Source of the DNA: Okamejei kenojei
Taxonomy: Eukaryota
Direction: 5' to 3'
DNA length: 64,000 nucleotides
Assembly: GCA_035221665.1 (NCBI GenBank)
Contig: CM069140.1
Span: 52,142,001-52,206,000, forward strand
Part shown: piece by piece, positions 24,303 to 50,925 of the stretch
Layout: each line of letters opens with the position of its first letter
How positions within the stretch are numbered: the first letter of the stretch is position 1
Translations under genes and position numbers: made by a program
The notes under the pieces: model-generated
Told to the model about the DNA's origin: nothing
Databases searched by the model: none
The model's input: the letters and a program-made list of their open reading frames with translations, nothing else

Positions 24303-24856
24303 TGATCTATAAGGTGCAGTTTAACTACGTTCACAAGTGTGTCATTGTATAATGGCATCTCACAAAACACATACAAATTAAAATTAATTAAAATGGTTTT
24401 ATTTAGTGGAACAGTGGCAACTCCTTGTTAGAATTCTGTTGGCCAGTCTTCTGGCATAATTAGTAATATGGGAAGAGCAGAGAATATAAAAGGATCAGCT
24501 CCATCATACAATCCTTTCTACAGAAAAGCTTTCATAGTTTGTTGTACAATACTACTGTAGTTATTGGTATAGGATGCCATTTAAATTATTAGTTCTCAGC
24601 ATTTTATTAACATATTAAAGATCTTGTGCCAAGAATAAATTTCTGTTGATGATGTATCTGTATTTTTGTTTCTTTGCTATAAAGTTAAATATAATGTGAT
24701 TTTTATTTTGAATAAAAGTTCAGTATTTTGCTAATATTACAGCGTTAATTAAGAAAAAAAATCATGTTACAAATCTATCCTGAACAGATTTCTTTGTCAG
24801 TCTGGAATCTGATCAGCAGATTAGTAATATTTACATTTATTTCTTTATTCATTCAG

Positions 24857-25011
24857 TTATTCTTCCAGCTGCAGTTATAAATGTTGCAGGCATCTCTCCT
24901 TATCAAAGAGGGTTTTACTGCGATGACAACAGCATCAAGTACAGCACTAAGAAAAGTGTGGTATCCAGTCTCCTGCTTTTAATAGTGGGAACACTACTGC
25001 CAATTGCTTGT
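24857..25011 (+). CDS. PLPP3: PLPP3 alternative exon 2A (duplicated, putatively mutually exclusive; LPP1a-like)
   Basis: Acceptor ttctttattcattcAG and donor GTAAGT at 25012. Length 155 nt, phase 1->0, no stops: (V)ILPAAVINVAGISPYQRGFYCDDNSIKYSTKKSVVSSLLLLIVGTLLPIAC. Carries the LPP-family PxxRGFxCxDxSIxY motif and is homologous to the exon 1.3 kb downstream. Confidence 0.85.
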
Positions 25012-26291
25012 GTAAGTTTATATCTGTTGGTGCATGGCCAAGCCAAGACAAAGTAAAATGCGGCATTTCCTGACAGTAATTATTTTCCTTATGGGGTCTC
25101 TGAGTCTTGACAGTTCACTTTTCCACGTGGACTGTGTTCTGTGTATTTTTGGGAGCATCTTAGAAAATCTTCTAAAAGATAGTGCCAACGTCTAAATATG
25201 TACTCTCATTGATTTACGTTCTGGGAAATTAAAAACATTAAAAAAAAATTCCAACAACAATCATTCTCAAACTAGAGAAAGGGAAACCGTGATTTCAGAA
25301 CAAAGCTGGTTATTGCATATACAAAAGTATTTTTTTAAATCATTGCGCACTGGCTCTGAGTTTTCCATTCATCTGCGACCAAATTGCTTTGCTAGTTGGT
25401 CTGAGTGTGAGTTATAAGGGACTGCAGGGATGATGGGAGGCTGGCTTATCATTCTTTGTATCTCTGTTGAACTTAGGTCCCAGAGATGAAAGGGCAGTAT
25501 TCCTTTCTGACATATGTATGATATTAAGCAGATCTTTACAAAAGCAAGTGGAGCCCAGAAGAAATGCAGCACAAAGTCTAATAAAAAGTCATTGCCAAGA
25601 AAACAAGAGGAGGTGGGGATAAAATGAAGAACATAAGAAACAAAAATCAGAAGCGTTTCAAAGAGTAATGAAGGGATTATGTGATTAACCCAATAGTTAG
25701 GCCAAATCATATACTGATACATTTTGTAAATCCATGGGATTAATTATAATGCTAAATACATGATAATAGCTGTTAAATTATTTACATATTTATTGTCGTA
25801 AAATGGGATCCTTCTTAGATCTCAACAAAATAAGGGGAATAACTAGTTAGAGTTTTAGACCTTTAAAAATCTAAAAATAATTTGCACCTTAGAAGTGACT
25901 AAGAGATTTATTAATGTGAATTTTTGAATATGAATCACTTTTTTTTTAAGTGCTAAATTAAAATAATTAAAGTAGGATAATCTTTTGTCTCACCCTAAAA
26001 TTTATCATGGCTTTTCCTCTTTCCTAACATTGAGATTAAACTTTTTTGCAAGTAATTTTGATAAATTTGGCTATCTAAATGTCACTATTTTGTTTGTGTA
26101 AGGGTTGTGCATTTATCATTGCACTGTGAGGGGTGGAGAGGGGTATGTGAATAATGCCACAGAATATATTTTTTCTATTTGTCCTCTAATGCCACACTTT
26201 ACTTTGTTGAAGCAGTTATGCCCCTCAGCTGTTTGTTGTCTATGTTACTTACCCTTGCTTTGTCTGTATCTGTTGTTGTCCTTTCTATTAG

Positions 26292-26449
26292 CTGGCCTCC
26301 CTTTCCTGGTTATCGAAACTAGCACCATCAAACCTTATAAGCGTGGATTTTACTGCAATGACGAAAGCATCAAGTATCCCTATAAGAATGGAGAAACAAT
26401 CAGTGATGCTGTGCTTTGTGCGGCTGGTATTCTAATCACCATCCTCTCT
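26292..26449 (+). CDS. PLPP3: PLPP3 (phospholipid phosphatase 3) canonical exon 2 (2B)
   Basis: Acceptor tcctttctattAG and donor GTAAGT at 26450. Length 158 nt, phase 1->0: (A)[52 protein letters not shown]. Closely matches recalled vertebrate LPP3 ([30 protein letters not shown]). Confidence 0.95.
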
Positions 26450-26958
26450 GTAAGTTTCCAATCACTTTGATCAAAATCAATTGTGCCTTTTTGTCTGCCA
26501 TTTGCAGAATTCCTTAGCAAAGATTGTTTATTTAATTAGAACATTTCAAAACTAATAAGCATTACAAAGTAAGCAAATCAGTAGTAAACAAATGTGTAAA
26601 ATTTGTTCCAATTTTGTTTTGTAACTAGATATACAGAGGACCTGATATTCTGCATTCTTTATGGGGTAGTCTATTTGTATCAAGTAGGCACAGAAAAAAA
26701 AATGATATTCCAGTGTTTCTCTTACTTTAAGAAATAATTGTCTGATCCATTTCAAAAGAGTGCTTGTGACAACACCTATGGATTACTTGTAAACAAATGT
26801 TTACACCAATTGTGACTTTTGAGATAAACGGAGTGAGAGAAATTGGAAGGTGCACCTGTCCCCCAAACAAAGAAGGTTTGTGAATATCAGGGCAAGAAGG
26901 CAAACTCGACTGTCTGCAGATTGCCCCAGTCACCCCTGAAAATAACCTCAGCTGAAGT

Positions 26959-48975: not shown

Positions 48976-49256
48976 ATAATATCTGGAGAATGCTACCGGA
49001 TCCATTACATGAAGGAGCGTTCCAAGTCCTTTATACGCAATCCATATGTAGCTGCTCTGTATAGACAAGTCGGCTGCTTCATCTTTGGCTGTGCTATCAG
49101 TCAGTCCTTCACTGACATTGCAAAAGTGTCTGTCGGCCGCCTGAGGCCACACTTCCTAGATATTTGCAATCCAAATTTTTCAACCATCAACTGTTCCCTG
49201 GGTTACATTGAGAACTTTGAATGCAGAGGCAATGAAAGCAAAGTTCAGGAAGCAAG
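48976..49256 (+). CDS. PLPP3: PLPP3 exon 3 (contains PAP2 catalytic motif C1, KxxxxxxRP)
   Basis: Acceptor ttttgttaacAG and donor GTAGGA at 49257. Length 281 nt, phase 0->2: [94 protein letters not shown]. Confidence 0.96.
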
Positions 49257-50867: not shown

Positions 50868-50925
50868 GAAGTCGTTCTTTTCAGGACATGCCTCCTTCTC
50901 ATTATATACCATGTTGTATTTGGCA
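50868..50925 (+). CDS. PLPP3: PLPP3 exon 4 (catalytic motif C2, SGH)
   Basis: Acceptor tttgttttccAG and donor GTAAGT at 50926. Length 58 nt, phase 2->0: (R)KSFFSGHASFSLYTMLYLA, in frame with exon 3. Confidence 0.96.

Follow-up and report, generated by a model that had tools for sequence, protein, structure and literature searches.

PLPP3 is a coronary-disease locus and encodes an essential LPA and S1P phosphatase. In the skate Okamejei kenojei, two versions of its exon 2 lie within the window (the whole 64,000-nucleotide stretch of DNA that was analyzed), which raises the questions of how one version is used at a time, when the pair arose, and what the upstream version means for the protein. 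The reading that we regard as probable is that PLPP3 contains a tandem exon-2 pair that remains open when one member is used at a time, and that the pair stems from a single early-vertebrate duplication predating the genome duplications that led to PLPP1, PLPP2, PLPP3, and a fourth PLPP3-like gene.

The exon pair, its splice products, and its distribution

The layout of the locus is given in Table 1. The window corresponds to G000:C10:52142001-52206000 of a 2.76-Gb genome, and the proteins it encodes are most similar to skate proteins. The constant exons are orthologous to PLPP3 (LPP3); exons 1, 5, and 6 are all on C10 outside the window, and the gene extends over more than 110 kb of the skate genome. 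Exon 2A, which codes for the second half of TM1, extracellular loop 1, and TM2, is separated from exon 2B by an intron of 1280 nt, and the two are adjacent homologous exons of similar length and identical phases, as tandem duplicates are. The coordinates, splice sites, and both stop codons that a sequence-only reading of this DNA had given for the pair were confirmed.

Table 1. Features of the skate PLPP3 locus (positions in the window unless a contig is named)
Feature	Position	Strand	Remarks
Exon 1	G000:C10:52120012-52120138		127 coding nt; ends in phase 1; ~47 kb upstream of 2A
Exon 2A, alternative, LPP1a-type	24857..25011	+	155 nt; phase 1->0; AG..GTAAGT; open frame
2A donor GTAAGT	25012..25017	+	predicted pairing with ACTTAC at 26247-26252 (-45 to -40)
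TGCATG	25031..25036	+	20 nt after 2A donor; 22 copies in 64 kb
Arm S1, 5' side of predicted stem	25048..25067	+	18/20 Watson-Crick pairs; no substitution in related-skate contigs
Arm D, 3' side of predicted stem	26188..26207	+	104-85 nt before 2B acceptor; positional match in L045 and L046
Branch-point-like TACTTAC, A at 26251 (-41)	26246..26252	+	motif prediction; inside 61-nt AG-free zone of 2B
Exon 2B, canonical	26292..26449	+	158 nt; phase 1->0; AG and GTAAGT ends
Second possible S1 partner in exon 2B, codons D-A-V-L-C	26405..26419	+	predicted in skate only
Exon 3, constant	48976..49256	+	281 nt
Exon 4, constant, SFFSGH catalytic motif	50868..50925	+	58 nt

The four possible splice products were joined in silico. 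The 1-2A-3 and 1-2B-3 joins were both open through exon 3. Inclusion of both exons (1-2A-2B-3) led to a TAA at 26433-26435, inside exon 2B, and omission of both (1-3) led to a TAG at 49062-49064, inside exon 3, so that either/or splicing alone is productive, as had been proposed. The phase assumed earlier for the product that skips both exons holds because the exon 1 located on C10 ends in phase 1. By established rules, a stop codon more than 50 nt before a later junction triggers nonsense-mediated decay; the TAA and the TAG are each more than 50 nt upstream of later junctions, and decay of the double-inclusion and double-skip RNAs is therefore expected. Full-length 2A proteins and full-length 2B proteins are both present in relatives.

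Exon 2A had been described as hidden, which is wrong, as RefSeq and UniRef already carry the isoform. The corresponding exon 1-2A-exon 3 proteins stand there under pipeline labels only (PLPP3 isoform X2 of sharks, teleosts, and amphibians): isoform X2 is the 2A form in sharks, gar, bowfin, zebrafish, and salamanders, and the 2A form has other labels in coelacanth (X4) and frogs. Because pipelines already annotate 2A across anamniotes, the novelty of the isoform is lowered. A search with the 2A peptide returned 11 chondrichthyan proteins named PLPP3 isoform X2 among 76 candidates. For the full-length search, the best 120 of 1249 matches comprised 97 proteins with 2A only, 20 with 2B only, and 3 gene models with both, and the named 2A carriers included gar, bowfin, zebrafish, many teleosts, coelacanth, axolotl, newts, and several frogs including Xenopus laevis. 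The 87 further cluster members all had 2B; most were amniote, and 14 rows were chondrichthyan and 2 coelacanth. The earlier proposal that an LPP3a isoform survives in this lineage thus stands as to the isoform and was understated as to its range, which covers anamniote jawed vertebrates.

All amniote PLPP3 proteins seen carried 2B and none carried 2A, on evidence that consists of protein records, with amniote intron 1 read over at most 470 nt (L050). In axolotl and two gars (the same or close species), 2A scored above 2B with the query used, so an annotated amniote 2A should have ranked among the listed matches. On the basis of these records, PLPP3-2A was apparently lost in reptiles, birds, and mammals. 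The proteins listed also contained no 2A from sturgeon, caecilian, or chimaera. The Leucoraja, Amblyraja, and Hypanus records show 2B without an isoform label, which suggests that annotation may overlook 2A.

Two teleost loci from metagenome contigs (L045 and L046, 2 of the 11 loci returned) contained the exons of 155 and 158 nt, set 351 and 401 nt apart, respectively. A second teleost plpp3-like gene, in which exon 3 begins IIIGESYR, also has A-type and B-type isoforms (P0340, P0502, P0503, and P0343), and the pair therefore seems to have been retained in both copies after the teleost genome duplication.

A predicted stem between the exons

Neither a U12/U2 incompatibility nor a linear distant branch point applies to the exclusion of one exon by the other, because both donors are U2-type GTAAGT in skate and teleosts and the AG-free zone of the 2B acceptor is just 61 nt. 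Arms S1 and D form an inverted repeat and are predicted to pair as a stem. Such a stem, running from after exon 2A to before the 2B branch point, would pull the 2A donor to within ~35-80 nt of the branch point; the shortened distance would hinder 2A-2B joining, and nonsense-mediated decay would clear the double-inclusion and double-skip RNAs. With branch points that are motif predictions (41-88 nt from the acceptor), the effective donor-to-branch distance was 49 and 55 nt in the teleosts and 35-78 nt in skate. For comparison, the parts of PMC5740500 and PMC7969005 available to us place the steric limit on this distance at ~50 nt. The OGDH exons 4a/4b, for which the available part of PMC7969005 reports a threshold of ~50 nt close to the PLPP3 effective distances, achieve the effect by distant branch points in the linear sequence, whereas in PLPP3 it would be a stem, looping out 0.2-1.1 kb, that shortens the distance.

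By the first statistic, 18 of 200 shuffles equaled the skate stem, which is not significant; by a later, gapless statistic that is post hoc, 0 of 500 did. When windows were tiled over the 64 kb, only 1 of 528 equaled D in its pairing with S1. When the whole of 2B was folded, S1 paired inside 2B (MFE -384.7 vs -384.3 with S1:D forced), a partner that is not preferred in teleosts. In the intron alone, the predicted stem extended outward to a pairing of the 2A donor with ACTTAC, which had a probability of 0.85-0.89; the value was ~0.65 with 2A and part of 2B included, and the pairing was lost with whole 2B. Under the statistic fixed before teleost DNA was seen, the teleost stems were equaled in 9 of 200 (L045) and 0 of 200 (L046) shuffles, and the folding z values of the introns were -1.7 and -3.3, respectively. 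In both teleost loci, the stem begins 13-20 nt past the 2A donor and closes 126-116 nt upstream of the 2B acceptor, and its pair probabilities are near 1. Near the base of all three PLPP3 stems (skate, L045, and L046), ACAA-R-G is paired to UUGU. The alignment of L045 with L046, the only two alignable sequences, contained double changes in 4 of 65 pairs and none in the basal helix. Intron sequence of skate PLPP3 could not be aligned to that of PLPP1 or of the teleosts, and the stems are thus homologous by position only. The corresponding stem of skate PLPP1 was not significant (9 of 100 shuffles under the first statistic and 71 of 500 under the later one).

On these folding predictions, a role for the predicted stem in exon exclusion stands at about an even chance. 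A little short of even, in our estimate, is the alternative that the exon pair is old and real, that its exclusivity is achieved only via frameshift, nonsense-mediated decay, and splicing factors, and that the stem is incidental. It would be in keeping with the stop codons of both wrong products, with the dependence of the skate stem on the folding context, and with the failure of a competition between exon 2A and the intron, seen in skate, to replicate in teleosts; such frames are found in 60% of human mutually exclusive exon clusters, according to the part of PMC5740500 that we could consult. It fits less well with the prediction of a donor-to-acceptor stem at corresponding positions of three loci, of which two were out of sample, or with the z values of L046 and L045, and nonsense-mediated decay did not explain exclusivity in the SCN genes in the portion of PMC12772994 at hand.

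SCN-alpha exons 5a/5b (Chernyavskaya et al., PMC12772994, available in part) resemble the PLPP3 pair in a mutually exclusive duplication older than the paralogues, unannotated distant copies, intronic RNA structure, and Rbfox motifs; they differ in that their intronic elements are alignable across paralogues and minigene-tested, whereas the PLPP3 stem is predicted, positional, and not significant in PLPP1. For the stem-plus-steric model of PLPP3, the compact teleost intron (350-400 nt) is suited to inexpensive testing. For Dscam exon 17, "steric hindrance with RNA secondary structures" has reportedly been described. The TGCATG that follows the skate 2A donor, which we take to be an RBFOX-type motif, is absent at the matching place in the two teleost loci and in skate PLPP1.

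Several other candidates were discarded. Docking/selector competition of exon 2A (24946-24964) with S1 for D reached 1 of 300 in skate, post hoc, and 31 of 150 and 43 of 150 in the teleosts, and a shark ST-to-SV change covarying with D was dropped along with it. The S2:D pairing had a probability of 0 in the full fold, and five identical codons (D-A-V-L-C) in 2B were unremarkable as a signal, their base rate being about one half. Two further observations concern intron ends. The translation of 26214-26291, the end of the intron before 2B, is nearly identical to the mis-annotated N-terminus (AVCCLCYL...) of bamboo shark P0218, and ~70 nt of intron, including the branch-point-like site, are thus apparently conserved between skate and shark. 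After the A donor of skate PLPP1 (G000:C1:130840265-130840290), a 13-nt stretch with the ACAA/UUGU base of the PLPP3 stems can pair at -122 to -110 of the B acceptor or, alternatively, with the B branch-point region directly; it is not significant alone.

Paralogues and age of the duplication

The skate genome contains four classical PLPP genes. PLPP1, on C1, has A followed by B, 22 kb apart, and the PLPP2-like gene on C28 and the fourth, PLPP3-like gene on C36 have the B-type exon only. No second exon 2 was detected in the 70 kb upstream of the C36 exon or the ~100 kb upstream of the C28 exon (the exons 1 of both being unlocated), and two genome-wide searches yielded no further exon 2 copies for these genes. 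PLPP3-2A and PLPP1-2A were reciprocal best non-self matches in the genome (52.7 vs 36.1 bits in one direction, and 53 vs 48.9 and 38.8 in the other) and fell into one clade, which supports 2A as the PLPP3 equivalent of the LPP1a exon. The human LPP1a peptide quoted in the sequence-only reading agrees with the section of the PMC8373072 supplement that was accessible (155 nt, upstream of the LPP1 exon), and its gap-free alignment to 2A held, with 24 of 51 residues identical by hand count. Of three motifs that had been listed as shared with LPP1a and absent from 2B, two do not discriminate: QRGF is found in many 2B exons, and sharks have DDSI in place of DNSI, which is particular to skate.

The fourth, PLPP3-like paralogue (C36:10851568-10883830) contains a one-base frameshift in the C run of exon 3 near C36:10863975, which is either an assembly error or the mark of a pseudogene. 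Relatives of this paralogue occur in teleosts and a monitor lizard (P0347 and P0394). Weak exon-3-like matches of 30-35% identity at G000:C10:64365636-64596376 and C36:2775431 are presumably PLPPR-type relatives.

A tree of 77 vertebrate exon peptides (51 columns) separated PLPP3-A, PLPP1-A, and hagfish P0348, with support of 99/98, from all B exons, PLPP2, the fourth paralogue, and the lamprey exons, so that 2A groups with the LPP1a exons and apart from 2B, as the sequence-only reading had anticipated. Duplication histories were then compared by constrained tests on sets of 32, 34, and 46 rows chosen by hand from 99 extracted, all over 51-53 columns only. The quartet of PLPP1 and PLPP3 exons (32 rows) gave AA|BB as the best arrangement, with AU values of 0.29-0.41 for the alternatives; an earlier rough quartet run had a best tree that differed by model. 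With PLPP2, the fourth paralogue, and cyclostomes added (34 rows), late duplication was rejected (AU 0.004/0.012) and two duplications after the first genome duplication were not (0.065/0.077). A further 12 invertebrate rows (46 in all) gave AU values of 0.011/0.014 and 0.09/0.20 for these two histories, respectively. A grouping of the A exons apart from the B exons was the best arrangement, or tied with it, in all three sets. In simulations under the two-duplication null, the observed gain was reached in 1 of 40. Indels did not discriminate between the histories. The invertebrate rows intermixed with the A exons in the free tree. The B exons are marked by F at column 4 and loss of P at column 50, and the A exons by N at column 8 and Q at column 17; the A-type residues S35 and P50 are common to invertebrate exons. 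Part of the likeness between 2A and LPP1a is, on these residues, ancestral.

On the basis of the peptide comparisons, we favor a single exon duplication before the PLPP1 and PLPP3 paralogues with fair assurance. The earlier proposal that the duplication predates the PLPP1/PLPP3 split is upheld insofar as the pair is older than the present genes (AU 0.004-0.014), and one single event is not fully shown (AU 0.29-0.41 and 0.065-0.20). An unlikely alternative is that tandem duplication happened twice, independently, once the first genome duplication had taken place: in the ancestor of PLPP1 and PLPP2 and again in that of PLPP3 and the fourth gene, the upstream copies being alike through ancestral residues that both kept. 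The AU values for two events and the partly ancestral nature of the A-type residues leave room for such a history, and convergent tandem duplication is common, fly wunen having one in a different region (PMC9741552, in the part available). Against this, the two-event trees are 6-10 log-likelihood units worse and the best of them collapses to a zero-length branch, the simulations matched the observed gap only in the 1 of 40 noted above, and the F at column 4, loss of P50, N8 of the A exons, A-then-B order, and 155-nt length would each be needed twice. Very improbable are late, gene-specific duplications in which PLPP3-2A came from PLPP3-2B within PLPP3 and converged on LPP1a, for although the alternatives survive in the set limited to PLPP1 and PLPP3, and the 158-nt and 155-nt exons of PLPP3 share an extra N-terminal residue that PLPP1-B is without, this history is rejected once PLPP2, the fourth paralogue, and cyclostomes are included.

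Cyclostome PLPP3-like proteins cluster by their constant exons, with an A-type exon in hagfish P0348 and B-type exons in lamprey P0354, P0362, and P0479; cyclostome genes may, from these proteins, hold both A and B exons.

Among the closest known systems is the LPP1/LPP1a pair of PLPP1 (event 163 of Martinez Gomez et al. 2021, PMC8373072, available in part), which is like the PLPP3 pair in exon position, A-then-B order, and the 155-nt A exon, and of which the A peptide aligns gap-free. The two pairs differ in that PLPP1 keeps both exons in amniotes, where PLPP3-2A seems absent, and in the A-B intron, which is 1.3 kb in skate PLPP3 and 0.35-0.4 kb in teleosts as opposed to 22 kb in skate PLPP1. 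The portion of the PMC8373072 supplement at hand assigns the human PLPP1 event to Gnathostomata; the gene-duplication cell of this event is empty, and PLPP3 has no row. If the earlier origin is true, the LPP1/LPP1a switch, placed at Gnathostomata in the published dating, becomes older than the PLPP1/PLPP3 split, and one more family is added whose members inherited an exon choice through genome duplication and later lost it bit by bit. Searches of the open literature yielded no description of a second exon 2 in PLPP3 or of how it arose or was lost, and the supplements of PMC4417111 (file 1 excepted) and PMC8052449 gave no match for such an exon. New here are the tie to LPP1a, the earlier dating, the likely loss in amniotes, and the candidate stem; the mutually exclusive kind of splicing and the annotated protein are known.

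Predicted protein, transcripts, and selection

Human structures indicate what the exon exchange would alter. In the parts of PMC13500480 and PMC13745504 available to us, the residues encoded by exon 2 include F51 and I93 in the lipid cleft of PLPP3, C68, the tetramer contacts of loop 1, and, in PLPP1, five of the six tunnel residues listed. Exon 2 accounts for most of the acyl-tunnel residues in these new cryo-EM structures. Aligned by hand and in human numbering, 2A retains Y62, Y67, C68, Y75, and K78 and alters F51, E55, N69, E71, and I93 (F51->A, E55->N, and I93->T). An AF2 model of the 2A isoform of a relative (P0001) had a pLDDT of 82 and an rmsd of 1.2 Å to human LPP1, and showed the six-helix PAP2 fold, the catalytic motifs, and the loop-1 cysteine; K144, R149-P152, S193-G194-H195, R241, H247, D251, and C64 were invariant. 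A single-sequence structure model was poor (pLDDT 45), and the ESM Atlas returned the family name only. Because exon 2 lines the lipid cleft, the exon switch likely tunes substrate preference. LPP1a is more active than LPP1 on FTY720-phosphate and S1P, according to the accessible portion of a review (PMC7564803). By analogy and from the model, the 2A isoform is likely to be enzymatically active and to differ in substrate preference, as LPP1a is reported to do, because the catalytic motifs are in constant exons, most tetramer contacts are kept, and cleft residues differ. The A/B pairs in two paralogues amount to a natural experiment on substrate choice.

The widest form of this scenario is tentative: the first vertebrate LPP gene would have had a cleft-wall exon-2 switch locked by a stem (GUAAGU:ACUUAC in skate), both would have lasted for more than 400 million years in fish and amphibian PLPP3, amniotes would have lost 2A, and zebrafish and Xenopus would make an unstudied LPP1a-like LPP3 isoform that mammals lack. 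Work on zebrafish and Xenopus PLPP3 involves a second isoform apparently missing from mouse and human.

Transcript use was examined in assembled contigs. Run X1 contained a spliced exon 1-2B-exon 3 contig at a depth of 79; its sole 2A contig, of 404 nt and a depth of 5.8, begins at 24857 and reads through the 2A donor. The run X1 contigs, which as contigs cannot show absence, contained no 2A joint and no 2A-2B joint, and no splice junction of 2A was observed in RNA of this skate. Full-length 2A proteins P0104, P0174, and P0207, of fish and newt type, are encoded on Logan contigs of 2.0-3.2 kb, which are most simply spliced transcripts because they are far shorter than the gene.

Contigs of a related skate differed from the window by 47 substitutions over 24710-26600 (40 of the 47 sites itemized, with the X1 counts spanning both exons), and none of these fell in 2A or 2B; for 2A, the Poisson probability of zero is ~0.01. 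The dN/dS check that had been suggested for 2A gave dN 0.092, below dS 0.196, in the teleost pair L045/L046, the estimate consisting of this one pair plus saturated skate-teleost values. The 2A peptide is 45-49/51 identical across the 7 shark and skate proteins compared; with this conservation and the 11 chondrichthyan carriers, the open frame of 2A is not due to chance. A status of exon 2A as a pseudo-exon, silent or decaying in this skate, is scarcely credible, since the missing 2A joint of run X1 and the skate and ray records that list no 2A isoform are set against an intact frame and splice sites, zero substitutions relative to the related skate, the residues conserved across sharks, and teleost and amphibian orthologues on transcript-sized contigs.

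Exon 2B of the teleost pair (L045:666-823 and L046:635-792) differed by 1 synonymous change, with a dS of 0.026 vs 0.196 in 2A, and identity over the locus was ~76%. The low dS of 2B in this pair suggests an extra constraint at the RNA level.
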